Below, in pieces: positions 22,052 to 39,109 of a stretch of DNA of 64,000 nucleotides. The notes under the pieces were generated by a model, which did not search any database, had not been told where the DNA came from, and saw only the letters and a program-made list of their open reading frames with translations. The position numbers and the translations under genes were made by a program. Every line of letters starts with the position of its first letter. Position 1 is the first letter of the stretch. This DNA comes from Spirochaetaceae bacterium. Lineage in GTDB: Bacteria; Spirochaetota; Spirochaetia; DSM-2461. The stretch covers positions 256,001 to 320,000 of the forward strand of contig JAOPTT010000009.1 in assembly GCA_051531975.1 (NCBI GenBank), written 5' to 3'.

Positions 22052-25000
22052 AAAAGCCCTATCTGGTGACAAATATCTTTTTCAAGTATCTCTTTTTTTA
22101 GTGATTCAAACTCTTTTTGGTTTTCCAGACCTTCATATCCCAGTGCCATAATATATTTTGCCTGTAGATCTCTTCTTAATGTTATATCATCTTCAAATAC
22201 CAGTAATAATGGTAGCGATGTAGCAAAATAATCAATCTCAGCTCTCTCTTTAAGTTGTTTTTCACCATAACTTATCATCTGCCTATAAAGGTTTTCAGCT
22301 TCAATATTATGACCTAATTCAGTCATTGATTTTGCTGTATAATAAGAGTTTTCACTAATATCTTGAACCTCCATAGAGCTAAAATCACCTTTTATTTCAC
22401 TACTTTTTTTAAAAAATATGTCACTTTTATCTTTATCTCCAGCAGCCTTGTATGTAAGACCTAAGTAAAAGAAAATATAACTCTGGTTCTGTAGGGGATG
22501 CCAACTCTCTCCAAGATTTTCTGGGATAGTTAGTATACTGTTAAAGTGGTTAATAGCTTTTTTATAATCCCTGTTTTTTAATGCAACTTTTCCTAAAATA
22601 AGGTGAGAAGTAGCCCATGAACCAACAACCTGTCCTTCGCCACCTTCCCAGGGATGGAACTGTCTTGAATTAAGGATTTTTAGAACTTTGTCACACTCTT
22701 CTGTTAAATTGTATAAGTTGGTTATCTCAATTACCAGGTCATCCCTTTCTGTTATTAAGTTATAGTTTTCCAGGAGAAACTCTTTTCTTAATTGTATAGA
22801 AATGTTCATTTTCTTTTTAAGCTGATCAAGTTCAAAAAGTACCCGTCCGTCATTAGGTGCAAGAGTAAATGCTTTGTTATAATATTTTAATGCTTTCTCT
22901 GGGTTTTCTTCAAAGTTAAAATACGCAATCCCTAAGTTTCTGTATACTACTGAAAGTTTTGATCCCCTAGTTTCAGCCATCTCCCAGCAATTAATAGCGT
23001 CGGATTTTCTTTTTTTATCATAAAGAAGATTCCCAAGATAATATGGAGCATTAAAATCACTGTTATTTGTAGTTATAACCCAGTTTAGTATGTCGTACTC
23101 AAAAGCTGTTGAAGGGAAAAAGTGGGTTGGGTCCTGTTGTGATGCAACCCTAAGATCACTCTCAAACTCTCTATTTAATATATTTTTTACCATAGCCATT
23201 GTGTAATATGGCAGGGGAGATTTGTTCTGTTTAGAAAGTATTAAATAACCTTCAAGTATAAACTCTGCCTCTTTATATAATCCTGCAGAAATATAATCTG
23301 CTGCTGTATCAATATAGTTATTTTCACAACCCCTCATTAATTTTAAGACAATTTCCTGGTGTTCTTTAAGTTTATTAGAATCATTAAGTTTCTCAAAAAT
23401 AAACAGTAATTCGTTATGTGCCATAAGAAATAGTTTGTCTTTTTTAATAATATCAAGGCAGATGTTAAGTGCTTCATTATATTTGCCTATATTTCTTAAA
23501 ACAGCAGCTTTTAGTGTCCATGCCTTAAAATTATCATAATTGTAGTTAATGGACTGGTCCAAATGTTCCAGTGCAGAACCTATATTATTATTTTTTATAT
23601 CCAGAAGTGCAACTTCAAAATAACCTGCAGATCTCCATGCATAGTTCCAGGTGGATTTATAAAATGCGGCATAAGCATCTCTGTTTTTGTTTTGTTTTTT
23701 TAGAGCCAAACCTAAACCGTAAAAAGCTTCACCATCTATAGGGTTTGGGTGTTTTGAAGTTAAGCGCTCTATTGCACTTCTAAAATATGTTTCAGCAAGT
23801 TTATATTCAAATCTACTAAGATGGTATTGTCCCATTGCTGTATTACATCGGATATCTCCAGGATCTCTTCTTAATGCCTCTTTCCAATAATCCTCTGGGT
23901 ATCTGGTTGGGTGACGATACTGGTTAAGATGCTCTCCAGCAAGGTAGAGATCTTCTGTACTTTCAAGATCTTTAGGTTCCGGTGTCTCTTTAGCTGCCTC
24001 GGGAAGTTCTTCAATACCTTTATTATTATTAATTGTATATTCTATAAGCTTTTTCCCATCAAAAGAGATTAGTTTTATTGAAAGACCTTCAGGATCAGAG
24101 TTAAATGGTATCTCTGATGTGAACGGTTTTCCAGGTTCTAATTCAGCTTTAAACGAGTCTAACTTCTCCCCTTTATAAGAGATAATAATTTGGGCATTGT
24201 GTAGTTGGGATGTGCAACAAACTCCGGTTTTAACTGTTCCATTTTCATAACTAAGATGAACTGCGCCAAATAGATTTGCCTGGTGTGCTATACCAATACC
24301 CTGTATAGGAAACCATGTTTGTGTAAATGTTTTAGTCTCTCCTGGCATTAGGTAGGTAAAATCCGGTTGATTATTGGTATAGACCCCTGCCATTAGTTCC
24401 ACATATGGACCATTATCATCAGTTAAGTTTTTATCCCAGTTCCAACCAAACTCAGAATTACCCCATGTCCACTGTTTTTTACCAGGTGAAATATGTCTAT
24501 TTGCAACATGAACAAATCCACCTTCTTGCTTAAAGTCATAACCTCCAAAAAACTCACCTTCGGTCTCTACAACCATGTAGCTTGTTGGTACTGGTATGTT
24601 TTTATATCTAGAAATGTCTGTCCCAGGGGCATAATCAATTCCATAATAAATATCTTTCGCCAAAGGGAATTCACTCATTGCCCGGGCAGCATGGTCAGCA
24701 ACATAGTTAACATCAGGGGGGAAAAATGACTGATATTCATCGTGTACCTCGGCTGCTACATTTGCCCACCAGAGGAAAGTTTTAATATCCTCAGTTCTGT
24801 TATATAGACGTACTTTTGCCTGCAGTACTGAACTATCAGGTTTAAGGGATAGACCTATCATCCCCTTCATTCTTTCCATAGGATCATGGTCGCTTAACCA
24901 GACAGTTTTTGTCCCATCACTCTCGATTTCAAATGTATATTCAACAGGCATATATGTACCGGGTCTATGATGTTGGGGCCAGTTGAATTCTACTCCACCT

Positions 25001-25386
25001 GAGAGCCATGGACCAGCTAGACCAACAAGTGCTGGTTTTATTACGTCATTCCTGTAAAAGAAATCGTAGTTATTGTTTGTTTTATCCTGACCGATTTGAA
25101 TCCGGCCTCCAAGCTCTGGTAGTATTATAAAACGTACATAGTCATTTTCGAGAAATATTCCGTCATACTCTTTATCTATTTTGTCGTCGGATACTTTATC
25201 AATATATGGGATAGGATAGACTTTTCCACAACTTCCCTGATATACCCTTTTTTCAAAGAACATAGGATTATGTTCAGCTTCTCCGACCTCGTATGTTGGT
25301 ATAGAAATTTTGCTATTCCACAATTTTACCGATTCATTTTTTTGCTCTGCCGGTACATTAAAAATATATGGTGATTTAGTTTCCAT
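22048..25386 (-). CDS. DUF5107-domain tetratricopeptide-repeat protein (E. coli YphG-like)
   Basis: RVYQGSCGKVYP, IKPALVGLAGPWLSGGVEFNWPQHHRP, SPGKKQWTWG, FHPWEGGEG; C-terminal TPR-like helices. Confidence 0.85.
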   Translation of the reverse strand: METKSPYIFNVPAEQKNESVKLWNSKISIPTYEVGEAEHNPMFFEKRVYQGSCGKVYPIPYIDKVSDDKIDKEYDGIFLENDYVRFIILPELGGRIQIGQDKTNNNYDFFYRNDVIKPALVGLAGPWLSGGVEFNWPQHHRPGTYMPVEYTFEIESDGTKTVWLSDHDPMERMKGMIGLSLKPDSSVLQAKVRLYNRTEDIKTFLWWANVAAEVHDEYQSFFPPDVNYVADHAARAMSEFPLAKDIYYGIDYAPGTDISRYKNIPVPTSYMVVETEGEFFGGYDFKQEGGFVHVANRHISPGKKQWTWGNSEFGWNWDKNLTDDNGPYVELMAGVYTNNQPDFTYLMPGETKTFTQTWFPIQGIGIAHQANLFGAVHLSYENGTVKTGVCCTSQLHNAQIIISYKGEKLDSFKAELEPGKPFTSEIPFNSDPEGLSIKLISFDGKKLIEYTINNNKGIEELPEAAKETPEPKDLESTEDLYLAGEHLNQYRHPTRYPEDYWKEALRRDPGDIRCNTAMGQYHLSRFEYKLAETYFRSAIERLTSKHPNPIDGEAFYGLGLALKKQNKNRDAYAAFYKSTWNYAWRSAGYFEVALLDIKNNNIGSALEHLDQSINYNYDNFKAWTLKAAVLRNIGKYNEALNICLDIIKKDKLFLMAHNELLFIFEKLNDSNKLKEHQEIVLKLMRGCENNYIDTAADYISAGLYKEAEFILEGYLILSKQNKSPLPYYTMAMVKNILNREFESDLRVASQQDPTHFFPSTAFEYDILNWVITTNNSDFNAPYYLGNLLYDKKRKSDAINCWEMAETRGSKLSVVYRNLGIAYFNFEENPEKALKYYNKAFTLAPNDGRVLFELDQLKKKMNISIQLRKEFLLENYNLITERDDLVIEITNLYNLTEECDKVLKILNSRQFHPWEGGEGQVVGSWATSHLILGKVALKNRDYKKAINHFNSILTIPENLGESWHPLQNQSYIFFYLGLTYKAAGDKDKSDIFFKKSSEIKGDFSSMEVQDISENSYYTAKSMTELGHNIEAENLYRQMISYGEKQLKERAEIDYFATSLPLLLVFEDDITLRRDLQAKYIMALGYEGLENQKEFESLKKEILEKDICHQIGLL

Positions 25387-25514: not shown

Positions 25515-26423
25515 ATGCAAAAGATGTCTTATATTATGTTTATGGAGAAATATCAAATAGATGGGTTTTTTAATCAGAGGTTAATTGTAATCCCAAATAA
25601 AATAAAAGAATCTTTACAGTCCGAAGTACTTTATAGAAGGTTATATATTACTGATATAGGATTTTTTCCAAAGGTGGCAACACATAGGAGAGATAGAGAG
25701 AAGGGTGTTTCCCAGCATATTTGTATCTACTGTGTTAAAGGTGAAGGATGGATTAAAACCGTCGAGGGAATAAAAAAAATATCGGAGAAAGAAATCCTGA
25801 TTATCCCCCAAAACACACCTCATAGTTATGGGTCATCACAGGATAATCCATGGAGTATATACTGGTTCCACTTCTCGGGAGAGGACTCTATCCAATATTT
25901 TAAAGATCAGAATCATATAATAATTAAAAAATTACAGGTGAATAATGAACTGAATTTTATCGAAATATTTGACCGAATATACCTGTCCCTTGAGAAGGGG
26001 TATAACAGGGGGAATATGATTATAGTTTCTGGGCTTTTTAGTTATCTATTATCCCTTATTTTTTTCTCAGGAAATAGAGATGAGTATAAACTTGATAAAA
26101 ATGGAGAGATAGTAGATAAAAGTATAGAATATATGCGGAATCATCTGAATAGCCAATTAACATTGAAGCAGATGGCTTCCTATGTTAACTACTCAATACC
26201 ACACTTTTGTGGCATATTTAAGCAAAAAACAGGACATTCTCCAATTCATTATTTTCTACAGTTAAAAGTTCAGAAAGCCTGCCTACTATTGGATACTACT
26301 CTGGATAATATATCAGAAATAAGTCGTACTCTAGGATTTGAAGATCCCTACTACTTCTCAAGAGTATTCAGTAAAATAATGGGTAATTCACCAAGAACTT
26401 ATAGAAAAATAAAGAAGGGGTAA
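25515..26423 (+). CDS. AraC-family transcriptional regulator (true start may be ATG 25542)
   Basis: Cupin PHSYGS..PWSIYWFHF and HTH GFEDPYYFSRVF. Confidence 0.93.
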   Translation: MQKMSYIMFMEKYQIDGFFNQRLIVIPNKIKESLQSEVLYRRLYITDIGFFPKVATHRRDREKGVSQHICIYCVKGEGWIKTVEGIKKISEKEILIIPQNTPHSYGSSQDNPWSIYWFHFSGEDSIQYFKDQNHIIIKKLQVNNELNFIEIFDRIYLSLEKGYNRGNMIIVSGLFSYLLSLIFFSGNRDEYKLDKNGEIVDKSIEYMRNHLNSQLTLKQMASYVNYSIPHFCGIFKQKTGHSPIHYFLQLKVQKACLLLDTTLDNISEISRTLGFEDPYYFSRVFSKIMGNSPRTYRKIKKG

Positions 26424-26435
26424 ATTCAAAATATA

Positions 26436-28280
26436 TTAGTCTTTATTTTCTAAATCTTTATCTTGAGCAATTGGTAATAGAATCGTAAAAACTGTATATT
26501 TTCCAGGTATACTTTGCACTGAAATATCCCCATTGTAGGATTCAACAATATGTTGACATATAGATAATCCTAAACCAGTATTTGTTTTTGTAACCTTAGT
26601 ACTATAAAAGGGAAGAAAAATATGATCCTGAATCTCACTTGGAATACCATGGCCATTATCCATAATTTCAATTTTTATATATTGTTCAATTTTATTTACT
26701 GATATTTGGGAAGTCTTTATAGTAATTTCACCACCAATAAGAACAGCTTCTGTTGCATTATACAGAAGGTTTATGAAAAGTTGCTTAAGTTTATTTTCAT
26801 GTCCTTCTAAAAATAGTGACTTACTTTTAAAAGATTTTTTAAGTGTTATTTTTCTTTTTTGAAAGCGGTGCCCTATTAGGGTTGCAACTTCTTCAAGAAG
26901 GGCATTTATATCTAGAGTCATCATAGGTCTAACAGCTACTCTAGAAAAAGACAGAAGGCTATTAATTGTTTCAACTATTCTAGTTAGTTCTGATTGAATC
27001 TTATCTACGCAATCAATAGAATCTTCATTTAGTTTTTCCATTTGAAGCAGGTCTAGGTAGTTTTGAATAATGCTTAAAGGGTTATTTACTTCATGGGCAA
27101 CACCTGCTGCCATCTCAGCAGTTGAAACAAACTTTTCGGCCTGCTGAAGATATTTTTGTGTCTCATAATCGACGGAAATATCTTCTAAGAACAATAACGT
27201 TCCCTGAGCGATATCCTTATCCTCACCAAGAGGGGACACCCGTATTTTTAATAACTTTTTATCTCCGAATTTTAATTTTTGCCACAATTCACTTTTTCGG
27301 TTTTTAATAGCGGCCAGAATATCATCACTTTTCTCAAGAGATAGTTTTTTAATATAATCAATTAATAGAGTATCTTTTATCTCTTCAGGTTTACATTCAA
27401 GAATTCTAGACGCAGCTAAATTAATATCTTGAATCTCATTTGTAGGTGAAATTATCATGAGTCCCTGGGGTATGTCGTTTATAATCCTTTTATCATACCT
27501 AGATATAAGCAGTGCTTTATTATTAACAGGAGTTTTTTCATAACCTTTATCTACAGCAAAGTTAAATGCAAGATTCATAAGTCTGGTTCTATTCACGAGA
27601 TTAACATCTTCTGTTCCTCGGCGGTGACCATTATGCATTATTGTAACTCTATCGGCTATTTGGAAAATCTCATCAATATTTGATGTTACATATATAATTC
27701 CCATTTTCTTATTACGACACATCCTTAAAAGTCTGTAAATATGTTCCTGCTGTTCTGGAGTTGTTCGTTGGGATATCTCGTCTAGAATAAGTATATCATC
27801 ACCACGGCCTAAAACCCGCATAAATGAGAGAACCTGTCTTCTTGAGAATGTAAGATCTGAAACCTTTGTTAGTGGATCTTCATCAAAACCATACTTTATA
27901 AAAAGTTCCTTGCACTCCTTTAAAAGCGCTCTTTTTTTAGTAGGTAACATAATGCCTGGGAAGCGCCCTATATATATGTTATCTAAAAGGGTTCCTGTAG
28001 TAATCACCTCATCATTTTGATATAACATCCCGATTCCATACTGGTGTGATAAAGAGGGAGTTAAACCTGTAACTATTTCCCCTTTTATTTTTATAACTCC
28101 ATCCTGGGCTGTATTATATCCACTTAAAAGTTTTACCAAGGATGATTTTCCTGAACCGTGATCACCTATTATAGCGTGAATTTCTCCAGGGTATAGATCA
28201 AAATCAATACCTTTAAGGGCGGTGAGGTTTCCATAAGAGTAATGAATGTTTCGCATTTTTACTAATGGATCTTTGTTCAT
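26436..28280 (-). CDS. ABC-ATPase-like domain / PAS / histidine kinase fusion protein
   Basis: N-terminal ~240 aa sugar-ABC NBD (Walker A GDHGSGKS, ILILDE); central PAS-like region; H-box AAGVAHEVNNPL, N-box QLFINLLYNA, DNGHG, F-box, TGLGLS; no TM segment. Confidence 0.9.
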   Translation of the reverse strand: MNKDPLVKMRNIHYSYGNLTALKGIDFDLYPGEIHAIIGDHGSGKSSLVKLLSGYNTAQDGVIKIKGEIVTGLTPSLSHQYGIGMLYQNDEVITTGTLLDNIYIGRFPGIMLPTKKRALLKECKELFIKYGFDEDPLTKVSDLTFSRRQVLSFMRVLGRGDDILILDEISQRTTPEQQEHIYRLLRMCRNKKMGIIYVTSNIDEIFQIADRVTIMHNGHRRGTEDVNLVNRTRLMNLAFNFAVDKGYEKTPVNNKALLISRYDKRIINDIPQGLMIISPTNEIQDINLAASRILECKPEEIKDTLLIDYIKKLSLEKSDDILAAIKNRKSELWQKLKFGDKKLLKIRVSPLGEDKDIAQGTLLFLEDISVDYETQKYLQQAEKFVSTAEMAAGVAHEVNNPLSIIQNYLDLLQMEKLNEDSIDCVDKIQSELTRIVETINSLLSFSRVAVRPMMTLDINALLEEVATLIGHRFQKRKITLKKSFKSKSLFLEGHENKLKQLFINLLYNATEAVLIGGEITIKTSQISVNKIEQYIKIEIMDNGHGIPSEIQDHIFLPFYSTKVTKTNTGLGLSICQHIVESYNGDISVQSIPGKYTVFTILLPIAQDKDLENKD

Positions 28281-29608
28281 ACTTCTATGCCAAGCTTTTT
28301 CATTTTGTTATAAAGTGTTCTTCTTGTTATTCCTAAAAAATCTGCAGTTTTACCTCGACTGTTATTTGTTTTATCCAGAGTATCAAGGATAATCTCTCTG
28401 GTTATATTATCCGAGACATTCCTAAGAGGTAACACCTTTTCTTTTGGTGAGTATATTTTGTACTGTTCAGGAATAACATCCATTCCAAGTGTATCTTCAT
28501 CACAGAAAATGACCATTCGTTCCACTGTATTTCTGAGTTCTCTAATGTTTCCTGGCCAGTCGTGCTGAAGAAAAAGCAGATCAACTTCACTAGTAAATCC
28601 ATCTATATTTTTCCCATATTTTATACTGAATTCTTTTACAAATGCCCGGGAGAGTGAGAGTATATCTTCTAACCTCTGTTTTAAAGAGGGTAGCTCTATC
28701 TGGATAACAGAGAGTCGATAATATAGATCCTCTCGAAAAGTTCCACCTGTAATACGTTCCTTAAGGTCCCTATTTGTTGCAGCAACAATACGGACATCCA
28801 TTTTTCTAGTTTTATGAGAACCAAGACGTTCATACTCTTTTTCTTGAATAACTCTTAGCAGTTTTGCCTGGGTTTTGGTACTCATCTCCCCAATTTCATC
28901 AAGAAAAATAGTTCCACCCTCAGCAACTTCAAATTTTCCAGGTCGGGATTCTGAGGCATCAGTGAATGCTCCCTTTTCATATCCAAATAGTTCACTTTCC
29001 AAAAGAGCTTCCGGAATAGCAGCACAATTTAATTTTAAAAAAGGTTTTCCCTCTCGGGAGCTATAGCTATGAATTGCTGAAGCTGCAAGTTCTTTTCCTG
29101 TGCCAGATTCTCCTGTTATCAATACTGGAACATCGGTTGGAGCAACCTTTGATATCATTTTAATTTTTTTTCTCATTATTGGATTCGCCGATATCATACA
29201 TTTTGTTGCATTTGATTCAGGAGAATAAATATCACTGTTTGATTCATCATCAGAAAGCAGAGGTTCAATCTCTTTAAGCAGATTGGCAAACCTAACTGGT
29301 TTTTCAAAGAAGTTAATTGCTCCATAACGCATGGCCTGAACTACATTCTCTACTGATGCATAACCAGATACCATTAATATAGGGAGTTTACTATAAACTT
29401 TTCGGATTTGCAGAATAAGATCTATTCCTGATAACTCTGGCATTTTTAAATCAGTGATTAGAAGATCACATGGATTTTCTCTTAACATATGAAGAGCGTG
29501 TTCAGGATTAACAGTGTATACTGGATCATAACCTTTTGCTTTTAATAGTTTAGATAGGCTAATACAGAGTTGTTCTTCATCATCTACAATCAAAATTCTT
29601 TTATTCAT
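28277..29608 (-). CDS. Sigma54-dependent response regulator (NtrC/AtoC-like)
   Basis: Receiver (IVDDE, DLKMP), AAA+ GESGTGKE, ESELFG, GAFTDA, WPGNIREL, Fis HTH; ATGA overlap with the kinase. Confidence 0.95.
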   Translation of the reverse strand: MNKRILIVDDEEQLCISLSKLLKAKGYDPVYTVNPEHALHMLRENPCDLLITDLKMPELSGIDLILQIRKVYSKLPILMVSGYASVENVVQAMRYGAINFFEKPVRFANLLKEIEPLLSDDESNSDIYSPESNATKCMISANPIMRKKIKMISKVAPTDVPVLITGESGTGKELAASAIHSYSSREGKPFLKLNCAAIPEALLESELFGYEKGAFTDASESRPGKFEVAEGGTIFLDEIGEMSTKTQAKLLRVIQEKEYERLGSHKTRKMDVRIVAATNRDLKERITGGTFREDLYYRLSVIQIELPSLKQRLEDILSLSRAFVKEFSIKYGKNIDGFTSEVDLLFLQHDWPGNIRELRNTVERMVIFCDEDTLGMDVIPEQYKIYSPKEKVLPLRNVSDNITREIILDTLDKTNNSRGKTADFLGITRRTLYNKMKKLGIEV

Positions 29609-29677
29609 ACTAAGGAATGATAATTGACAAAAGTTAAATTGACAAGGACTTCGTTCGAATAGACAATTTGGATATAA

Positions 29678-29730
29678 TTGGGAAAAAAGATTCTCAAATA
29701 ATATCGGAATGAGAAACGTTATTTCCTATT
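29678..29730. promoter_or_regulatory. Putative tandem upstream activator sequences for the NtrC-type regulator
   Basis: TTGGGAA-N6-TTCTCAA (29678-29697) and AATGAGAAA-N5-TTTCCTATT (29708-29730), about 100-150 bp upstream of the -24/-12 site. Confidence 0.45.
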
Positions 29731-29825
29731 AATTCAATAATATGATTTATATTATTTTGTTTGTAAATAGGATATATCTATATATAGTAAGCATTTACCA
29801 GTTTTTGGTAATTGATTAAATGTTT

Positions 29826-29841
29826 TGGCATGAATTATGCA
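29826..29841 (+). promoter_or_regulatory. Sigma54 (-24/-12) promoter of araFGH
   Basis: TGGCATGAATTATGCA with exact GG-N10-GC spacing, 35 bp before the araF start. Confidence 0.8.
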
Positions 29842-29875
29842 GTGTTAAGAGTATACAGAAAAAGAGGAGAACATT

Positions 29876-30874
29876 GTGAAGAAAAACGTAATTTTAACTA
29901 TCTGTCTGATTTTAATGACAGGTTCATTATTTGCCAACGGGGTAAAGGAAGCTAAAAGCGAGACTAAAGAGATTAAAATAGGATTTCTTGTAAAAATGCC
30001 TGAGGAAGGATGGTTTCAACAAGAGTGGAAGTTTGCCCAGGAAGCAGGAGCAGATTACGGATTTAAAGTAATTGAGATCGGAACTCCTGATGGAGAGAAA
30101 GTTCTATCAGCTATAGATAATCTTGCAGCGCAAGGTGCACAAGGTTTTATAATTTGTACACCAGATGTAAAGCTTGGATCTGCAATATTAGCCAAAGCTA
30201 ATGCAAATGACTTAAAGCTATTTACAGTTGATGATCGTCTAGTTGGAGCTGATGGAACACCTATTCAAGAGATCCCTCATATGGGTATATCTGCATACGA
30301 AATTGGTAAAGAAGTAGGTAAAACACTGGCCTCCCAGATGAAAGAGAGAGGATGGAAACAGGAAGAAACAGGTTTTATGAGAATAAGTTTTAATGAACTT
30401 CCTACAGCAGTAGATAGAATTACAGGTGCTACAGATGCATTAGTTGAAATGGGTTATGATAAGAATTTTATATTTGATTCCCCACAGAAAACCACAGATA
30501 CAGAGGGTGCTTTTAATGCGGCAAATATTACAATTACAAAAAATCCTAATATTAAACACTGGCTTATTACAGGACTTAATGATGAAGCTTCAGCTGGTGG
30601 AACAAGAGCTCTAGAAGGTAATGGTTTTGCTGTAGAAGATATCTGTGCAGTAGGAATTGGTGGAAGTGGTGTAGCTATTGCTGAATTTGAAAAAGAAAAT
30701 CTTACAGGTTTCTATTCTACAGCACTGCTTTCTCCTAGAAGACATGGTTATGAAACTGCAGAATTGGTATACAAATGGATTACCACTGGTGTTAAACCTC
30801 CAGCAACTACATGGACTAGTGCTGCTATGATGAACCGTTCAAACTATATTGCTGTACAAAAAGAAAACAGCTAA
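29876..30874 (+). CDS. araF: L-arabinose ABC transporter binding protein
   Basis: IKIGFLVKMPEEGWFQQEWKFA, PDGEKVLSAIDNLAAQGAQGFIICTPDVKLG, TVDDR match AraF. Confidence 0.9.
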   Translation: MKKNVILTICLILMTGSLFANGVKEAKSETKEIKIGFLVKMPEEGWFQQEWKFAQEAGADYGFKVIEIGTPDGEKVLSAIDNLAAQGAQGFIICTPDVKLGSAILAKANANDLKLFTVDDRLVGADGTPIQEIPHMGISAYEIGKEVGKTLASQMKERGWKQEETGFMRISFNELPTAVDRITGATDALVEMGYDKNFIFDSPQKTTDTEGAFNAANITITKNPNIKHWLITGLNDEASAGGTRALEGNGFAVEDICAVGIGGSGVAIAEFEKENLTGFYSTALLSPRRHGYETAELVYKWITTGVKPPATTWTSAAMMNRSNYIAVQKENS

Positions 30875-30899
30875 TACAGACATTATTTAAACAATTACA

Positions 30900-30931
30900 A
30901 TAACAGGAAGATTATATTTCTTCCTGTTATT
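30900..30931 (+). terminator. Intercistronic stem-loop after araF
   Basis: ATAACAGGAAGA...TCTTCCTGTTAT. Confidence 0.6.
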
Positions 30932-30958
30932 TATCCTAAATTAAATTGAGAGTTTGAT

Positions 30959-32470
30959 ATGATACCTTATTTACAATTTCGATCAGTTACAAAAAAATAT
31001 CCTGGAGTGGTTGCTTTGAACAACGTTTCATTTGATGTGCAACGTGGTGAAGTTCATGGATTAATCGGAGAGAATGGGGCCGGAAAATCGACCCTACTTA
31101 AAACCCTAAGTGGAGCACATAAACCAACATCAGGAGAAGTTATTCTTAATGGCGTTGTGCAAGACTTTACAAATACAAAGGATGCTTTAAAAGCCGGTGT
31201 TTCAATAATTTACCAGGAATTACATCTTGTTCCGGAAATGACAGTAGCAGAAAACCTTCTTTTAGGTCATTTCCCAAAAAAGATATCAGGTTTTATAGAT
31301 TTTAAATCTATGAGATCAATAGCCCGTTCCGAGCTTAAGTATATACTGGAAGATATAGACGTTAATAAAAAAATTAAAGAATTATCAATTGGACAAAGAC
31401 AAATGATAGAAATAGCAAAGGCGCTTTTACATAATGCGGATATTATAGCTTTTGATGAACCTACAAGTTCACTATCTGAAAGGGAAACAACTCGTCTTTT
31501 TGAAATTATTGATAATCTAAGAAAAGAAGGAAAATCTATTTTATATGTTTCCCATAGAATGGAAGAGATATTTAAGATATGTGATTCTGTAACTGTTTTC
31601 CGTGATGGTCAGAAAATAGAAACATTTACTGACATGAATAAAATTGATAATGATATTCTTGTTAACCGTATGGTTGGTCGGGATATAAAAGATGTATATA
31701 GTTACAAACCAAGAAAAATTGGTGAGACTTATCTTAAGGTTGAAGGTGTAAAGGGTTTTGGTTTAGAAGAGCCTGCTACTTTCGAACTGAAGAGAGGGGA
31801 AATTTTAGGTTTTTTTGGTTTAGTTGGCGCTGGACGTACAGAACTAATGAAGTTAATATATGGCGCTGAAAAATCTGATAATGGAAGTTTAGTTTTAGAC
31901 GGTAATAAGATTAAAATAAATTGTCCAAAGGATTCAATTGATAATGGTATATTTTTCTGCCCTGAAGATAGAAAGGATGAAGGAATAATACCAATAAGAA
32001 GTATTGTTGAAAATATAAATATTAGTGTCCGTAGACACAGTCTTAAAGCAGGTATTTTTCTTAACAAAAAAACAGAAATAGATACTACTGATAAATTTAT
32101 TAAAGCACTACGGATTAAAACACCTCATAGAGAACAAACTGTGGGTAGTCTTTCTGGGGGAAATCAGCAAAAGGTTATTTTAGCCCGTTGGTTAGCGGAA
32201 GATGTTAAGGTTTTAATTATGGATGAACCAACTAGAGGAATCGATGTTGGTGCAAAAAGTGAAATATACCAGCTTATGTACAAATTGGCAGAAGAGGGTA
32301 AATCAGTTATTTGCGTATCAAGTGACCTTCCGGAAGTTATGGGTGTGTCAGACCGTCTGCTTGTTATGAGGGAAGGTCAGATTGTATCTTCTTTTGATAA
32401 AAAAGATTACTCCGAAGAAGCTATTCTGAGCAAAGCATTGCTTAATACAAAAGCTAGTGTTCAGTCTTAA
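30959..32470 (+). CDS. araG: L-arabinose ABC transporter ATPase
   Basis: Tandem NBDs GENGAGKS, LSIGQRQ, FDEPTSSL, LSGGNQQK, DEPTRGIDVGAK. Confidence 0.92.
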   Translation: MIPYLQFRSVTKKYPGVVALNNVSFDVQRGEVHGLIGENGAGKSTLLKTLSGAHKPTSGEVILNGVVQDFTNTKDALKAGVSIIYQELHLVPEMTVAENLLLGHFPKKISGFIDFKSMRSIARSELKYILEDIDVNKKIKELSIGQRQMIEIAKALLHNADIIAFDEPTSSLSERETTRLFEIIDNLRKEGKSILYVSHRMEEIFKICDSVTVFRDGQKIETFTDMNKIDNDILVNRMVGRDIKDVYSYKPRKIGETYLKVEGVKGFGLEEPATFELKRGEILGFFGLVGAGRTELMKLIYGAEKSDNGSLVLDGNKIKINCPKDSIDNGIFFCPEDRKDEGIIPIRSIVENINISVRRHSLKAGIFLNKKTEIDTTDKFIKALRIKTPHREQTVGSLSGGNQQKVILARWLAEDVKVLIMDEPTRGIDVGAKSEIYQLMYKLAEEGKSVICVSSDLPEVMGVSDRLLVMREGQIVSSFDKKDYSEEAILSKALLNTKASVQS

Positions 32471-32495
32471 TAAAAACAAAAAAAAGAGGATTATA

Positions 32496-33476
32496 ATGGA
32501 AAATACAATAACATTAAAACAGGAGAATAAGTTTTTAAAACATTTTCATGGAATGTGGCAAAACTCAGGAATGATGGTAATATTTTTACTTTTATTTGTA
32601 GGTTTATCTATATTTGTTCCATATTTTTTCACCTGGCGTAACTTGATAGGTTTAGGTCTATCTGTATCCATGGTGGGAATGGTTGCCTGTACTATGCTTT
32701 TTGCCCTTGCATCAGGTGATTTTGATCTGTCTGTGGAGAATATTGTAGCATTTTCTGGAGTTACTGCAGCTGTAGTAACTAATTCTACAGGAAGTGTTGT
32801 GTATGGAGTTATCGCTGGTGTTCTTGGTGGGGGAGTTATAGGGGTTGCTAATGGTACTATAATTGCCAAGTTTGGAATCAATGCACTTATTACTACCCTA
32901 GCTATGTCACAAATTGTAAGAGGATTAGCATTTATAGTTTCAGGTGGAAGTGCTATTGGTGTTGCAAATACAAAATTCTTTGTTTTAGGTAACGGATCTC
33001 TGTTTGGTATTCCAAATCCTATAACTATAACAATAATTTGTTTTATTGTTTTTGGAATACTATTAAATAATACGTCTTTTGGTAAAAATACACTGGCTAT
33101 TGGTGGTAATATGGAAGCTACAAGGTTAGCCGGAGTCGCTGTAAGTAAAATAAGGATTCTTATTTTTACTCTTCAGGGTATGATGGCCGGGTTTGCTGGT
33201 GTTGTTCTTGCATCAAGAATGACAAGTGGACAACCTAATACTTCTCTGGGATTTTCCCTCGATGTTATATCTGCTTGTGTTCTTGGTGGAGTTTCTCTAT
33301 CAGGAGGTGTTGCCCCAATTCAAGGTGCTATAGTTGGTGTTCTAATTATGGGTACTGTTCAAAATGCAATGAACCTAATGAATATTCCTACTTTCTACCA
33401 GTATATGGTACGTGGTGTTATTCTGCTTATCGCTGTTCTGATAGATAAGTTCAAACAGAAAAATGCATTAAAATAG
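32496..33476 (+). CDS. araH: L-arabinose ABC transporter permease
   Basis: LASGDFDLSV, SRMTSGQP, ISACVLGGVSL; ATG 32496 with AGAGGA RBS. Confidence 0.92.
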   Translation: MENTITLKQENKFLKHFHGMWQNSGMMVIFLLLFVGLSIFVPYFFTWRNLIGLGLSVSMVGMVACTMLFALASGDFDLSVENIVAFSGVTAAVVTNSTGSVVYGVIAGVLGGGVIGVANGTIIAKFGINALITTLAMSQIVRGLAFIVSGGSAIGVANTKFFVLGNGSLFGIPNPITITIICFIVFGILLNNTSFGKNTLAIGGNMEATRLAGVAVSKIRILIFTLQGMMAGFAGVVLASRMTSGQPNTSLGFSLDVISACVLGGVSLSGGVAPIQGAIVGVLIMGTVQNAMNLMNIPTFYQYMVRGVILLIAVLIDKFKQKNALK

Positions 33477-33555
33477 AATGTTGATATAGAGGGATACTGC
33501 TGTTTTATTCAGTATTTCTCTATGAACTTTGAGTCCATACTTAGGAGTCGATAAA

Positions 33556-35412
33556 ATGTCTATAAAAGCTAAATTAATGAGTCTGATCTCTATAATACTT
33601 TTTTCATTTTTTTTAATTATTGTTGGATATTTTTTGGCTATCTCTCCAATAAAAAAAATGGAAATTGAAACAGGTATTCTCGAATCTCTTAAAATTTCTT
33701 TATTAGAAGAGAAATCCCAAATAAATCTTATTTTAGGAGACTCTTCATATGTGCAAACTATTGAGGAATTTTATGAAGCAGCAGATAAAACAAGTACTGT
33801 TTTTGAAGATATAAATTCAATAGAGTATATACGTTCAAAAAATCCTGGTATTAGAAATTCTCTAATAATAATTTCTAAAGTTAATAAGCTTAAAATTGAA
33901 GAGCTTCAAAAGTTGAAAAAGACAGATTTAGAATTAAGAATAATTGTTGAAGATATTTTCATATTTCTAGACTCATTTAATATTGTAAAGATTTACAGTG
34001 CACCCCAGTATCTTAATAATACCGGGAAAGAAGAAAGCTTAATTTTTGACAATCAATTTAATAGTTTTCTGTCTCAACACTCTATATATCAGTTATCACT
34101 TAATAGTTCATCTGCTGTTTTAAATGAACAATTTGAAGCGATAGATAGAGAAGTTAACAACATAAAAGTAAAGATTAATATAACTATTGGAATAGTTATT
34201 TCTATTCTTCTTATCTCTGTTTTTATTGGAAGTATAATATTTGCTAATTCTATCGCAGTGAATATAAAAAAAATTGTAAGATCTATAAATCATTTAAAGG
34301 ATGGTGATTTAACTGTTGTTTCTATAATTGATTCAAAAGACGATCTGGGAAAACTTAATAATAATCTGAGTCACTTTCAGGAGAATATGAAAGGGCTTAT
34401 ACATAGAATAAAGGGTGTTTCCCATGAAAATATAAGTGTTCAGGAGAAGCTTATTATAGAGGTTAAAGATACTGAAAACTCAAGCTTATCAATATCTGAA
34501 AGTTCAGATGAAATAAAAAAAGATATTGAGAATCTAAATGAAACCGCCAGTTTATCTTATGCTTCTGTTGAGTTGATCTCCACTCAAATTGAAAACCTAA
34601 ATGCTTCTATAATGGAACAAACATCAATGATAGAGGAATCCACTGCAGCAGTTAATCAGATGATGGCATCTATTGTTAATGTTGAGCAGGTTACAATAAA
34701 TAAAATAGATAGCTTAAAATTAATGATGCAATCACTTGTTAATGGTAATAGTCAGCTTCAAAATACCTCTATTAGTATAGAGCGGATAGATAATAGTGTT
34801 GGTGTTATTCAAAATATGGTATCAATCATTGAAAATATATCATCTCAAACAAATCTTCTGGCTATGAATGCAGCTATAGAGGCAGCACATGCTGGAGAAT
34901 ATGGGAAGGGCTTTGCTGTAGTTGCAGATGAAATAAGAAAGCTGGCAGAAGCATCTACAAAGAATTCAAAAGAAGTTGCTGACTCATTAAAAGAGATTTT
35001 AGACAGTATAAAAGATGCAACTACATCAAGCAGAACCACACAACAAACATTCACAGGAATAATTTCCGATGTAGATGGACTTTTCAGCTCAATGAATGAG
35101 ATCAGTTTAAGTCTCATAGAACTAAAAACAGGTGGGGATCAGATACTTATAGCTATGAATTCCCTTCAAACTATGTCTATAGATGTTCAGGATAACTCTA
35201 CAAATATTACAGATCAATCACAGGCTGTATATAGTTCAGCCCAGAACGTTCAAAAAATATCAGGGAATGTACACAGTGGAATAAATCGGGTTTCTAATGA
35301 TATAGGGCGGATTTCTAAAACTATCAATGTTATTCAGAACCTAACCGATAATATAGGTTCTGTTGCAGAACGGATTGATACTGAGTTGGGTTTTTTTAAA
35401 ACTTCAATTTAA
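33556..35412 (+). CDS. Methyl-accepting chemotaxis protein
   Basis: Two TM helices, [42 protein letters not shown] 33556 with AGGAG RBS. Confidence 0.95.
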
Positions 35413-35538: not shown

Positions 35539-36699
35539 ATGAAAATAACTGATGTAAAAGTCTGGCTTGTAGAAGGTATTAAATATAACTGGACAATGAT
35601 CAAAATATATACAGATGAAGGTTTGACGGGTGTTGGTGAAGCGACAAACTGGCCAGGAAGTCCAATTGTTGAAGCTGCAGCTATACATGCAGGGGAACGA
35701 ATAATTGGTATGGATCCATTAAGGACTGATTATATATGGACAAAACTATATCGGGATCTTAACTGGGTTGGTCCCTATGGGGCATCAATGTGTGCCATTT
35801 CAGGAATCGATATGGCTCTTTTGGATCTTAAAGGAAAAGCATTTGGAGTACCATGTTATGAGTTATTAGGTGGTGCATTCCGTACAGAGATTCCACTCTA
35901 TGCAAATTACTGGTTTACAGGTGGAGGGCATAATGTTGAAGACTATGCTAAACAGGCAAAGGTTGTACAAAAAGCTGGATTCAAGGGATTAAAATTTGAC
36001 CCATTTGCTCATACAAGTTACTTCTATGGAGATGACTTATCATCTAATCTTTCCCTAACAACAACACAGCAGGACTTAGCTTTTGATATCTGCGCCGGGG
36101 TTCGAGAAGCTACTGGCCCGGATATGATCATGTTAATAGAAACCCATGCTTTACTAAATACAAAAACAGCAATTACTATGGCTAACCGCCTAGCAGATCT
36201 AGATATTAGTTGGTACGAAGAACCTGTAGGTCCTGAAAATGCTAAAACTCTTAAAGCAGTCCGTGACCGTCTTGATCCCCGTGTTTCTATCTGTGTTGGT
36301 GAGAGACATTATACAAGGCATGGTATTCGGGATGTTCTTGAAAATCACACATGCGATATTCTTATGCCGGATATTACAAGGTGTGGTGGTCCTTCAGAAA
36401 TGAAACGTATGGCAACTATGATGGAAGCTTATAATGTACTTCTAGCACCACATAATCCTAATGGTCCGCTATCTACAATCGCTAGTGCACATGTTTGTGC
36501 TTCGGTACCTAATTTTTTCCGACAGGAATTTATGTTTAATGATGTCCCATGGAGAGATGAGGTTATAGATCATCCTATAGATATAAAAGATGGTAAACTT
36601 ATTTTATCCCGGCGTCCTGGTCTTGGAGTTGATCTAGTTGAAGAAGTTATGCAGTCTCATCCTGGAATACGAGAAGCAAGAGATGGCTTTTATGTATAA
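35539..36699 (+). CDS. Mandelate racemase/galactonate dehydratase-family acid-sugar dehydratase
   Basis: AISGIDMALLDLKGK, KxK (KGLKFD), WYEEP, GERH, APHNP. Confidence 0.9.
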   Translation: MKITDVKVWLVEGIKYNWTMIKIYTDEGLTGVGEATNWPGSPIVEAAAIHAGERIIGMDPLRTDYIWTKLYRDLNWVGPYGASMCAISGIDMALLDLKGKAFGVPCYELLGGAFRTEIPLYANYWFTGGGHNVEDYAKQAKVVQKAGFKGLKFDPFAHTSYFYGDDLSSNLSLTTTQQDLAFDICAGVREATGPDMIMLIETHALLNTKTAITMANRLADLDISWYEEPVGPENAKTLKAVRDRLDPRVSICVGERHYTRHGIRDVLENHTCDILMPDITRCGGPSEMKRMATMMEAYNVLLAPHNPNGPLSTIASAHVCASVPNFFRQEFMFNDVPWRDEVIDHPIDIKDGKLILSRRPGLGVDLVEEVMQSHPGIREARDGFYV

Positions 36700-36710
36700 A
36701 GGGGATAAAA

Positions 36711-37499
36711 ATGAGTCTTGAAATAGATCTTAAAGGTAAAGTAGCTGTTGTTACAGGTGTCTCCCAGGGGTTAGGTCTAGGTGTTGCTAAGGTTCTTGCC
36801 AATGCAGGTTGTAATATAGCTGGTTGTGCATTTAGTAGTAAAGAATCTGATAAGGCACAGAATTTTCTTGAAATTATGAAGTTGGAAAATATTAAAGCAA
36901 ACTATTTTAGTGTTGATGTTACAAAATTAGAAGAACAGTCCCGTTTTATCGATTCGGTTATAAAAGAGTTTGGGCGGATAGATCTTGTTATATCCAATGC
37001 AGGTGTAAACGTATTTAAGGGAGTATTAGATTGCTCGGAGGAGGACTGGTCTTATAATGAGCAGTTGAATCTTTCTTCACACTGGCGTTTGGCTAAGCTG
37101 ACTTATCTCTATCTTTCAAAAAATGCAGATGGAGTTTTTATTGTCATGACTTCAAACCACTGCAACTCAACTATGTCAGGTTGTTTCCCCTACAATGTAA
37201 CTAAAACCGCTTTAAAGGGTTTAGTTCAATCAATGGCAATAGAGTGGGGTCCATTAATAAGAACAATTGGTATAGCTCCAGGATTTATTCAATCTCCAGC
37301 TAACAAACAATGGTTTGATGCCTATGATGAACCTAAGGATGAAGAGAAGAAAACAATAGACCTTCACCCTGTTGGTAGACTTGGAACTGTAGAGGATGTT
37401 GGGGCTTTATGTGCATTTTTAGCTAGTGGCTATGCTGGATTCATTAGTGGAACTACATATCTTATTGATGGTGGGCGTTCAGCTCTGATGCAGGATTAA
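36711..37499 (+). CDS. SDR-family oxidoreductase
   Basis: TGVSQGLG, NAG, YNVTK, DGG. Confidence 0.92.
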   Translation: MSLEIDLKGKVAVVTGVSQGLGLGVAKVLANAGCNIAGCAFSSKESDKAQNFLEIMKLENIKANYFSVDVTKLEEQSRFIDSVIKEFGRIDLVISNAGVNVFKGVLDCSEEDWSYNEQLNLSSHWRLAKLTYLYLSKNADGVFIVMTSNHCNSTMSGCFPYNVTKTALKGLVQSMAIEWGPLIRTIGIAPGFIQSPANKQWFDAYDEPKDEEKKTIDLHPVGRLGTVEDVGALCAFLASGYAGFISGTTYLIDGGRSALMQD

Positions 37500-37501
37500 G
37501 T

Positions 37502-39109
37502 ATGATTGTACAGAAGCTTACAACAGAAATCTCTGGGCTTGGTGAGTGTCCACTTTGGAACGAGAAGGAACACAAGCTCTACTGGACAGATATTACAGGT
37601 AAAATGATATGGACATACTCTCCTGTTTCATCAAATGCAGAAGTTCATACCAAGTTTGATTTTATGGTTGGTGGATTTGCCTTCACTAAAAAAAATGAAT
37701 TGATATTATGTTCTGATAGTGGGATTTATATCTATAAAAAGAACGAGTTTGCACCGAAGTTATTATATAGTATCGACGTTGAAAAAAATGAAAGGTTCAA
37801 TGATGTCACTGTGGATCCTGTTGGTCGTATACTGGCTGGAACACTAAAAACAGGTTTCAAAAACGGGAATTTATATTTACTTGAAATGAATAAACCACCA
37901 CGAATAATTCTAAGAGATTTAGGTATTTCAAATGGTATGTGTTTTGATGAAAATAACAATCGTTTTTATCATACCGATTCATGTCATCGAACTATAAGTT
38001 ATTTTGATTATGATCGGAATAATGGAACTATTTCCAATAAAAAAGTTATATATAAGGGATTAGAATCTGATGGTTTTCCAGACGGTATAACAATGGATAA
38101 TGAAGGTTACATATGGGTAGCTTGCTGGGGTGCATCACAGATTATACGTATAGATAAAATTGATGGGACAATACTTCAGAGAGTAGACGTACCAGCCAGG
38201 CAGCCATCCAGTATCACTTTTGGTGCAGAAGACCTAAGTACTCTTTTCATTACGACCGCCGCGGAAGGAGCCATAGATTTAACTACCGGTAAAGATAAGG
38301 AAGGAAACTTTCTTGGTGGATATCTTTATTGTTTCAATCCCGGAGTAAAAGGGAAAAAAGAGTATTATGCAAATTTTAAAAATAAGATGAATCAGGAGAT
38401 AGTTATGAATAATTTATGGAATAGTGACGAGGAGTTATTTAACCTAGCAAAAGAAGAACTTTTTACAGCCGTTGTAGGAGATATAATGGATAAATTAGGT
38501 TATTATCATCAGTTTTTACCACCTAACATTAGACCCCTCGATGATAATATGGTGGTTATAGGTAGAGCTATGACAGTTCTTGAAGCTGACTGTTTTCAAG
38601 AGCTTAATCCCAATCATGTTAACGAGAGTAACGGTGTAATGAACAGACCTTTTGGTCTTATGTTAGAGGCTTTAGATGATATAAAAAAAGATGAAGTTTA
38701 TATCTGTACAGGATCATCACCACATTACGCATTATGGGGTGAGATTATGTCTACCCGGGTCAAATATTTAGGATCTGCTGGGGCAGTTGTTAATGGATAT
38801 AGCCGTGATACTAAAGGAATCTTAGAACTTGGGTTCCCCTGTTTTTCATATGGGCCATATGCCCAGGATCAGGCACCTAGAGGGCGTGTTATTGATTTTC
38901 GTTGTCCTATAGAAATTGAAGGTGTAAGAATAAATGATGGAGATATTATCTTTGGTGATATTGACGGTGTATGTATCATACCTAAAGAAATTGAAGAAGA
39001 GGTATTTATTGGTGCATTAGAAAAAGCAAGAGGTGAAAAAATTACTCAGGATGCAATACGAGGTGGAATGAGTGCTGTGGAAGCCTGGGAAAAGTATGGT
39101 ATTATGTAA
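37502..39109 (+). CDS. SMP-30/gluconolactonase domain fused in frame to RraA/HMG-aldolase-family domain (possibly two genes, second starting at 38405)
   Basis: GECPLW, RFND, SNG, PDG lactonase motifs to ~aa 293; AVVGDIMD, ALWGEIMS, RDT, GDIDGV RraA motifs after; internal CAGGAG-N6-ATG at 38405. Confidence 0.85.
   Translation: MIVQKLTTEISGLGECPLWNEKEHKLYWTDITGKMIWTYSPVSSNAEVHTKFDFMVGGFAFTKKNELILCSDSGIYIYKKNEFAPKLLYSIDVEKNERFNDVTVDPVGRILAGTLKTGFKNGNLYLLEMNKPPRIILRDLGISNGMCFDENNNRFYHTDSCHRTISYFDYDRNNGTISNKKVIYKGLESDGFPDGITMDNEGYIWVACWGASQIIRIDKIDGTILQRVDVPARQPSSITFGAEDLSTLFITTAAEGAIDLTTGKDKEGNFLGGYLYCFNPGVKGKKEYYANFKNKMNQEIVMNNLWNSDEELFNLAKEELFTAVVGDIMDKLGYYHQFLPPNIRPLDDNMVVIGRAMTVLEADCFQELNPNHVNESNGVMNRPFGLMLEALDDIKKDEVYICTGSSPHYALWGEIMSTRVKYLGSAGAVVNGYSRDTKGILELGFPCFSYGPYAQDQAPRGRVIDFRCPIEIEGVRINDGDIIFGDIDGVCIIPKEIEEEVFIGALEKARGEKITQDAIRGGMSAVEAWEKYGIM

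Follow-up and report, generated by a model that had tools for sequence, protein, structure and literature searches.

The window analysed here, a stretch of 64,000 nucleotides from a Spirochaetaceae genome (contig JAOPTT010000009.1), contains the gene of a soluble sensor histidine kinase whose N-terminal part is an ATP-binding cassette (ABC) nucleotide-binding domain (NBD). The gene is placed behind that of an NtrC-type response regulator and close to a divergent operon for a sugar importer of the CUT2 type, and judging from the conservation of this arrangement, kinase and regulator very probably control the neighbouring transporter. We propose that the two proteins would serve the adjacent CUT2 importer, which is AraFGH-like in this case, as a dedicated two-component switch, and that the NBDs of the kinase may dock on the permease of the importer, by which the ABC importer would serve as a transmembrane receptor. 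As a whole, this is the best explanation we can offer, and we put slightly less than even trust in it. Transporter-coupled two-component sensing by an NBD-fused kinase, with the signal taken through the transporter, is plausible from the sequence comparisons and models described below.

To our knowledge, only a few systems are known by which a cell measures the activity of its own transporters (Bce, Pst/PhoU and DctA/DcuS), and in these the kinase and the transporter are always separate proteins whose contact was found by genetics. In the family described here, the candidate contact element, the NBD, is fused to the kinase, which makes the hypothesis directly testable. The family is also large, comprising at least 129 clusters at 50% identity in three phyla.

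A soluble histidine kinase with an N-terminal NBD

The segment from 26436 to 33476 of the window consists of five genes. Those coding for the regulator and the kinase are located on the minus strand, and those for a binding protein, an ATPase and a permease run divergently on the plus strand (Table 1). The stop codon of the regulator gene overlaps the start of the kinase gene by 4 nucleotides, and the kinase itself is encoded by a single uninterrupted open reading frame (ORF). Analysis with Pfam recognised an ABC_tran domain (residues 22-169, E 5e-19, 69.7 bits vs. a cut-off of 25), a marginal PAS domain (residues 264-368, E 7.6e-5, 23.1 vs. 22.6 bits), a HisKA domain (residues 389-447, 53.5 vs. 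26.9 bits) and an HATPase_c domain (residues 494-605, 84.8 vs. 26.4 bits) in the protein. A model obtained with AlphaFold2 (AF2), with a mean predicted local distance difference test (pLDDT) of 75.3 and a predicted template-modelling score of 0.42 overall, contains a complete NBD fold in residues 1-237 at pLDDT values of about 80-90, followed by a low-confidence linker (residues 238-266), a five-stranded PAS-like fold, the two helices of the dimerisation and histidine-phosphotransfer (DHp) domain and the catalytic domain. No membrane helices were found in the kinase by hydropathy analysis, the highest Kyte-Doolittle value of any 19-mer being 1.18 vs. 2.56 in AraH. A previous sequence-only reading of this DNA had described the protein as a soluble fusion of NBD, PAS-like, HisKA and HATPase domains in one frame of 614 amino acids, which is borne out by ORF, domain, model and hydropathy data alike.

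In an alignment of 36 family sequences, the kinase-core residues H396, N504/N508, D541-G543-G545 and G569-G571 are invariant, and the PAS region is the most variable part; no known cofactor or ligand motif was recognised by reading the sequence of the PAS domain. Searching the PDB by sequence, we obtained ThkA as the best match of the PAS-kinase half (3a0r, residues 262-585, E 2e-31) and generic ABC NBDs as the best matches of the N-terminus, and found no solved structure holding the NBD-kinase fusion. Residues 260-609 matched the AtoS-like kinases of NCBIfam (NF008468) with 219.4 bits vs. an equivalog cut-off of 646, which leaves the NBD uncovered.

Table 1. Features of the kinase locus, with positions in the window (., no strand assigned)
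Feature	Position	Strand	Basis or remark
Soluble sensor histidine kinase, 614 amino acids (NBD - linker - PAS-like - HisKA - HATPase_c)	26436..28280	-	ORF, Pfam, NCBIfam, AF2, hydropathy
ABC NBD, N-terminal, CUT2-NBD1-like, residues 1-237	27570..28280	-	Pfam, NCBIfam, AF2, tree, motifs
Variable linker, residues 238-263, about 26 residues, pLDDT <50	27492..27569	-	alignment, AF2
PAS-like domain, residues 264-368	27177..27491	-	Pfam, AF2, PDB match to 3a0r
DHp/HisKA helices, residues 372-447, with invariant phospho-acceptor H396 (AHEVNNPL)	26940..27167	-	Pfam, alignment, AF2
HATPase_c catalytic domain, residues 454-605	26466..26921	-	Pfam, alignment
NtrC-type response regulator, 443 amino acids (REC + sigma-54 AAA+ + HTH_8)	28277..29608	-	Pfam, NCBIfam
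Periplasmic sugar-binding protein (Peripla_BP_1), AraF position	29876..30874	+	Pfam
AraG-type tandem-NBD CUT2 ATPase	30959..32470	+	NCBIfam equivalog, 781.9 bits vs. 689
AraH-type permease (BPD_transp_2)	32457..33476	+	NCBIfam equivalog, 473.8 bits vs. 378
Candidate sigma-54 -24/-12 promoter TGGCATGAATTATGCA	29826..29841	+	35 nucleotides upstream of the araF start
Direct repeat AATTGACAA, two copies	29622..29645	.	about 190 bp upstream of the candidate promoter

The fusion represents a widespread protein family

A word-indexed homologue search resulted in 1,282 matches, and the 120 of these that were listed were all about 600 amino acids long and combined PF00005 with kinase domains. A homologue with 64% identity is known from Oceanispirochaeta sp. 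M1, a relative that can be cultured. Among the best 150 cluster representatives at 50% identity, 129 had lengths of 575-665 amino acids, and nearly all of them were single end-to-end matches. With the same layout recurring in these 129 representatives, the check on domain architecture and neighbourhood that had been suggested along with the sequence-only reading speaks for a genuine fusion and not for an assembly chimera. The remaining 21 rows were left out of the motif statistics given below; they are tandem ATPases, proteins of 255-488 amino acids, which are probably fragments or plain kinases, and an oddity of 851 amino acids (P0126) with two HisKA stretches.

Loci were retrieved with the family alignment as query and with patterns derived from the kinase part, whereas a query with the single protein returned no relative. 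Full-length family members were present in 18 of the 80 retrieved loci, and the other 62, which contain plain kinases, were not used. The 18 loci belong to Spirochaetota, KSB3/Moduliflexus and Planctomycetota, and the genome of the window contains three full-length NBD-kinase paralogues. Full-length matches (E <= 1e-50) were present in 13 of the 301 genomes of a phylum sample (11 of 126 genera), and three of these genomes had three copies, indicating a patchy distribution. Family members are currently annotated as 'ABC domain-containing protein' or 'AtoS', and JGI names many of them AtoS/AtoC. The sequence-only reading had known of no characterised example, and we likewise found no published description of an ABC-NBD/histidine-kinase fusion in full-text searches, the coverage of which ends at subscription journals.

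Two leads from the Atlas, both with a score of 0.84, concern a cluster of 852-amino-acid proteins with ABC_tran, GAF_2 and HisKA domains, mostly from Actinomycetota (166 members), and a cluster of 515-amino-acid proteins with ABC_tran and HisKA domains from Spirochaetota (136 members). By their domain content, NBD-kinase fusions may occur in further architectures.

An NtrC-type regulator and a CUT2 transporter accompany the kinase

The regulator encoded in the window contains a sigma-54 activation domain (245.6 bits in Pfam) and matches AtoC with 392 bits vs. an equivalog cut-off of 714 (NCBIfam). Using the window proteins in tblastn searches, we detected an NtrC-type regulator immediately upstream of the kinase in all 18 full-length loci and a tandem-NBD ATPase together with a BPD_transp_2 permease at a distance of up to 8 kb in 17 of them, the exception being a contig of 4.5 kb. 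The coupling to an NtrC-type activator, noticed before in the window, thus recurs in all of these loci. A Pfam scan of 99 ORFs from 15 loci, among them those of the other two paralogues in the window genome, yielded the corresponding set of a REC-sigma54-HTH regulator, an NBD-kinase, a binding protein, a tandem ATPase and one or more BPD_transp_2 permeases, with the binding protein recognised by Pfam in 14 loci and by tblastn in the fifteenth. The GC-rich loci L003, L006, L010 and L011 and the short locus L017 took part in the tblastn searches and stand outside the Pfam scan, the tree and the motif table; the promoter scan takes in the first four and omits L017.

Only five loci contain an AraFGH-like transporter (>50% identity). 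The transporters of the others show 27-43% identity, which suggests other sugar specificities. Each of the three paralogues in the window genome (those of the window, L089 and L090) is located beside its own CUT2 transporter, and locus L009 contains two regulator-kinase pairs arranged back to back, each of which adjoins a transporter of its own. The listed matches from the window genome include well over a dozen tandem CUT2 ATPases, three of which have an NBD-kinase as neighbour, so most CUT2 transporters in this organism are presumably regulated otherwise.

Two irregularities were seen within the modules. The regulator of L012 (L012:6646-7969) is split over two frames, which are covered by tblastn matches to residues 1-181 and 183-441, and Pfam recognises only the start of the sigma-54 domain; judging from the sequence, the split is due either to a frameshift or to a sequencing error in this metagenome-assembled genome. 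In L089 (6449-7672, minus strand) and L007 (2007-3200, minus strand), an ORF of about 400 amino acids without any Pfam match lies between the genes for binding protein and ATPase. These ORFs are homologues of each other (28% identity, E 2e-39), and the kinases and ATPases of both modules are sisters as well.

Candidate sigma-54 promoters in front of the transporter operons

The element TGGCATGAATTATGCA fits the GG-N10-GC pattern of -24/-12 promoters. Upstream regions contained TGGC-N8-TGC facing the transporter operon in 17 of 20 cases, while 0.59 would be expected in the 6,596 bases from the frequency of this core across all loci. An rpoN gene is present in the genome of the window, and the assumption of a sigma54-driven araFGH operon divergent from the kinase gene agrees with all three observations. 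The single RNA run available from the sample gave no match to this DNA. The loop of the window regulator that contacts sigma-54 reads GAFTDA, and the regulators of the window clade have either GAFTDA or GSFTDA (8 of 16, the window included). The remaining eight partner regulators have GAFTGA or GAYTGA in seven cases and GSFTGA in one. The direct repeat of AATTGACAA is a possible, putative activator site. From these comparisons it appears well supported that the pair activates the adjacent transporter operon, and the phosphorylated regulator would act on the sigma-54 promoter ahead of araF.

Origin and motifs of the kinase NBD

Residues 3-248 of the kinase align with the first NBD (NBD1) of the CUT2 ATPases AlsA, YtfR, LsrA and AraG in NCBIfam, with scores below the equivalog cut-offs (149.5 bits vs. 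772 for AlsA and 135.4 vs. 689 for AraG). The kinase contains one NBD, and the ATPases of CUT2 sugar importers contain two per chain, which by their motifs make up one consensus and one degenerate ATP site. We calculated a quick maximum-likelihood tree (SH-aLRT support only) from 16 kinase NBDs together with both NBDs of each cognate ATPase, omitting the second module of L009. Kinase NBDs, NBD1 and NBD2 each fell on their own side of a branch, with SH-aLRT values of 88, 83 and 100. Because the kinase NBDs form a separate group that is nested in no NBD1 lineage, the tree suggests a single ancient origin as sister of the CUT2 NBD1. Within the tree, several groups of kinases mirror those of their cognate ATPases, namely L005/L009a, L007/L089, and L001/L002 with the window and L008.

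The NBD of the window kinase has an intact Walker A motif (GDHGSGKS), Q-loop (Q88) and Walker B motif with the catalytic Glu (ILILDE), and its signature (LTFSRRQ), D-loop (DEISQ) and switch (YVTSN) are degenerate. Apart from the Q-loop, all these motifs had been quoted correctly in the sequence-only reading, as had LSIGQRQ, DEPTS and YVSHR, which we confirmed in NBD1 of AraG. The comparison of 16 modules (Table 2) and the counts from 130 family representatives refine what had been made of them. On the ATP side, the Walker A Lys is present in 126, the Walker B Asp in 125, the catalytic Glu in 114 and the Q-loop Gln in 104 of the 130 representatives, and the term 'pseudo-ATPase' is overstated for the family, although it fits the clade of the window better. 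The switch His is indeed missing in the window protein, but it is present in 80 of the 130 representatives, and its loss is a trait of the window subclade. The signature of the kinase is degenerate as stated, but the comparator was not canonical itself, since the canonical LSGGNQQK is found in NBD2 and not in NBD1 of AraG; part of the apparent degeneracy is therefore ancestral.

Altogether, 21 positions are conserved in NBD1 and lost in the kinase, and these cluster in the signature helix and the DEPT/D-loop, i.e., on the surface facing the partner NBD; the D-loop residues P169 and T170 are among the lost ones. We conclude from these patterns that ATP binding in cis is likely under selection and that the canonical chemistry of the trans dimer is not.

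Table 2. Sequence motifs of kinase NBDs and of both NBDs of the cognate ATPases in 16 modules
Motif	NBD1	NBD2	Kinase NBD
Walker A	GENGAGKST	GxxGAGRTE	GxH[RG]xGK[ST]
Q-loop	YQE	PEDRK	Q in 14/16
Signature	LS[IV][AG]QxQ	LSGGNQQK	degenerate
Walker B/D-loop	DEPT	DEPTRGIDV	DE in 14/16, DE[IVA][SLA]
Switch	SH[RK]	SSELPE	His in 8/16

Two planctomycetal members (L016:2133-3989 and L046:8001-9806) carry 'LDQ' for 'LDE' in Walker B and have no Q-loop Gln. An exchange of Glu for Gln in Walker B is the classical ATP-trapping substitution, and the Q-loop Gln of ABC proteins connects ATP with the permease.

Proposed sensing through the permease and alternative explanations

In the mechanism we favour, the input domain of the kinase would be an ancient copy of the CUT2 ATPase NBD1 that binds ATP and has lost the trans-acting motifs of the dimer. 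A kinase dimer would offer two NBDs to the coupling helices of the AraH permease dimer, replacing AraG on a small share of the permeases. Docking of the sugar-loaded binding protein, or the transport cycle, would then alter the spacing or the ATP occupancy of these NBDs, and this change would set the balance of kinase and phosphatase activity via the PAS-DHp core. Permease docking is our first choice because of the tie to CUT2 transporters, the origin of the domain from a CUT2 NBD1 and the two NBDs of a kinase dimer, which would fit a dimeric permease. We consider it the most likely mode of sensing, albeit tentatively.

The sequence-only reading had named AraH or AraG as docking partners. Complex prediction with two copies of AraH (residues 20-339) and the NBD (residues 1-250) gave interface scores (ipSAE) of 0.55, 0.55 and 0.56, while three controls gave 0.00, 0.11 and 0.00. 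The contacts agreed to at least 92% between runs, and the partner pLDDT was at least 78. In the calibration, 116 of 157 solved complexes came up to the pass mark, compared with 2 of 215 mismatched pairs; at ipSAE values of up to 0.60, 18 of the 157 solved complexes passed, as did both mismatches. The prediction (0.55 vs. 0.11 for the best control) weakly favours docking on AraH, and it may indicate likeness only, because complexes of ABC NBDs with permeases have already been solved.

If docking occurs, the importer would be re-used as a receptor: a soluble kinase dimer would occupy the place of the ATPase on the permease dimer with its two hydrolysis-poor NBDs, and the docking of the loaded binding protein outside the cell would be read as NBD movement and converted into phosphorylation. 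We regard this more specific proposal as still somewhat more doubtful than docking as such. It would represent a new class of histidine-kinase input, multiplied into paralogous pairs of sensors and transporters, and the ABC_tran-GAF-kinase proteins of Actinomycetota may possibly be a second origin of it. Docking would further mean that bacteria possess a soluble, modular device for sugar sensing, with paralogues of different specificity in one genome, and a natural case of a degenerate NBD that serves signalling and not transport.

Several observations weigh against the proposed mechanism. The score of the complex of AraH dimer and NBD lies in the weak range, and docking might be just as good with any other ABC NBD. 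A complete ATPase is encoded at every informative locus, so the permease needs no further NBD. The linker between NBD and PAS domain is variable, predicted at low confidence and about 26 residues long, which makes it a poor lever for mechanical signal transfer. The signature is degenerate across the 130 representatives (L[SNT]x[SA][DEQ]), and Gly is not among the six commonest residues at either of the signature Gly positions, which argues against a canonical ATP-driven closure of the NBDs; the two planctomycetal members with DQ in Walker B lack the Q-loop Gln in addition. With 26% identity (E 6.6e-28), the window NBD is no more similar to NBD1 of its own AraG than to other CUT2 ATPases of the genome (best E 7.5e-39). 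The modules are also loosely paired: an AraFGH-type transporter is combined with a kinase of the other subclade in L015, mismatches occur in L016, L046 and L090 too, and the phylogenies of kinases and transporters in the quick tree agree only in part. Finally, the TGGC-N8-TGC core is missing in 3 of the 20 upstream regions, with a TGGT variant in L015 and no such element in L016 and L046.

The main rival is a kinase that never contacts the transporter and senses a cytoplasmic signal, such as the imported sugar or a catabolite, by its PAS domain or its NBD, the latter serving as an ATP/ADP-dependent gate or clamp that checks the energy state before an ATP-costly importer is expressed. This would agree with the conservation of the ATP-binding residues and the loss of the trans-acting signature and D-loop, with the flexible linker, which suits a regulatory appendage, and with the complete ATPase present in every transporter operon. 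The variability of the PAS region would be expected if the paralogues bind different ligands, and the nearest solved relative of the PAS-kinase part, ThkA of Thermotoga, is a soluble kinase. However, cytoplasmic sensing leaves unexplained why the input domain originated from a CUT2 NBD1 and why the kinases are tied to CUT2 transporters of different specificities in three phyla. The PAS match is marginal and its sequence revealed no recognisable ligand motif, and the retention of the Q-loop Gln, with its role between ATP and permease, in 104 of 130 representatives speaks against this reading as well. We rate this alternative as unlikely, behind permease docking.

It is improbable that the kinase NBD pairs in trans with an NBD of AraG, e.g., as a mimic of NBD1 opposite the LSGGNQQK of NBD2, and reports the ATPase cycle. 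In its favour, the kinase NBD resembles NBD1 and has kept Walker A, Walker B and the Q-loop, and NBD2 of the CUT2 ATPases has a canonical signature but lacks the switch His and is degenerate in Walker A (GAGRTE), so that an NBD1 mimic could complete a consensus site. However, the positions of NBD1 that face NBD2 (LS[IV][AG]QxQ, the next helix and DEPT) are the very ones not conserved in the kinase, which speaks against the pairing with AraG suggested in the sequence-only reading, and the two covalently linked NBDs of AraG should outcompete a partner in trans. The idea that the window NBD mimics NBD1 of its cognate AraG in particular was rejected, as AraG ranks low as a match among the CUT2 ATPases of the genome.

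Even less probable is a kinase NBD that works as a motor, with the kinase dimer powering the AraH dimer as an alternative ATPase and the kinase activity as a by-product of transport. Retention of the catalytic Glu (114 of 130 representatives) and of the switch His (80 of 130) would allow it, and the two NBDs per kinase dimer correspond to the two permease subunits, but the family-wide degenerate signature, the additional loss of the switch His in the window clade and the full ATPase gene in the operon speak against it. An assembly chimera or a decaying pseudogene has practically no probability left: although the window derives from a metagenome-assembled genome and the sole DNA run holding the locus is probably its own source, a separately assembled contig of 15,285 nucleotides (depth 45.8) from that run, probably not independent, spans 26400-29700 with zero differences, the catalytic residues are invariant, and the end-to-end layout recurs in at least 129 clusters and in many independent assemblies, by which family-wide conservation this reading is refuted.

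Comparison with known systems

Bce modules consist of an intramembrane-sensing kinase with membrane helices, an FtsX-like permease and an OmpR-type regulator, and the NBD-kinase locus is not a Bce module. BceAB-BceS, PstSCAB-PhoU-PhoR and DctA-DcuS are treated as precedents of transporter co-sensing in the passages cited here (PMC6978683). As far as described there, the BceAB-BceS/BceR systems of Bacillota resemble our case in that ABC transporter and two-component system are united in one module controlling the transporter genes (PMC6978683; PMC9169098; PMC5786555) and that the kinase itself lacks an extracellular sensor (PMC6978683). According to these passages, the Bce kinase differs in being a membrane protein without input domain that binds the BceAB exporter, whereas the kinase described here is soluble and has its own NBD. 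Moreover, our locus encodes a CUT2 importer that depends on a binding protein and has a BPD_transp_2 permease, and the regulator is of the NtrC/sigma-54 type (REC + Sigma54_activat + HTH_8) instead of the OmpR type. Contact with the transporter is a feature of Bce systems; here, it is hypothetical.

The Pst system is similar in that its kinase, which has a PAS domain in the cytoplasm and lacks a periplasmic sensor, receives its signal from an ABC importer at the NBD subunit PstB, as outlined in the cited part of the review (PMC6978683). PhoR is described there as membrane-anchored and dependent on the adaptor PhoU (PMC6978683), whereas a paralogue of the NBD is fused to the kinase in our case. 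No PhoU-like gene was found among the 99 ORFs scanned by Pfam in 15 loci. In the MalK-MalT system, a sugar ABC importer uses its NBD subunit also as the signalling surface for a transcription regulator. MalK is a working ATPase that sequesters MalT, whereas the NBD-kinase contains a separate, signature-less copy of an NBD.

The N-terminal domain of KdpD contains Walker motifs. KdpD, which regulates the adjoining kdpFABC operon, is likewise a histidine kinase whose N-terminal nucleotide-binding module lies in the cytoplasm (PMC2714519). It differs from the NBD-kinase in that its N-domain is not an ABC NBD, that it has four membrane helices and that its regulator is of the OmpR type. AtoS/AtoC share the PAS-HisKA-HATPase core and the NtrC-type partner with our pair, but the scores are far below the equivalog cut-offs (219 vs. 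646 and 392 vs. 714), and the AtoS match omits the NBD. Two-component sugar sensing with a borrowed transporter-type component is represented by the binding-protein-dependent membrane kinases of XylFII-LytS, ChvE-VirA and LuxP-LuxQ. These borrow a periplasmic binding protein, whereas the component taken over by the NBD-kinase, which is free of membrane segments, is the cytoplasmic motor domain.

Other genes around the locus

A gene for a methyl-accepting chemotaxis protein of 627 amino acids (33529-35412, plus strand) starts 53 nucleotides past araH on the same strand. From this position, it may be co-transcribed with the transporter genes, and its product could share the binding protein for taxis. 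It is followed by three genes (35539-39109, plus strand) coding for an enolase-superfamily protein (MR_MLE), a short-chain dehydrogenase and a fusion of gluconolactonase (SGL) with an RraA-like aldolase. Taken together, these genes resemble an oxidative pathway for sugars, of the non-phosphorylative kind, located downstream of the transporter. In L018, too, the kinase is followed by an SGL lactonase.

On the other side, the kinase gene is flanked by genes for a protein of 1,112 amino acids with DUF5107 and tetratricopeptide repeats (TPR; 22048-25386, minus strand) and for an aldose-epimerase-like DUF4432 protein (21149-22072, minus strand). Proteins of the DUF5107/TPR and DUF4432 types are also encoded beside family members from other phyla (L016:3986-7549; L001:9807-10781; L002:9853-10824) and may be further members of the regulon. 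Finally, a gene for an AraC-family regulator with AraC_binding and HTH_18 domains (25515-26423, plus strand) adjoins the 3' end of the kinase gene in convergent orientation, and its product is a possible second sugar regulator at the locus.

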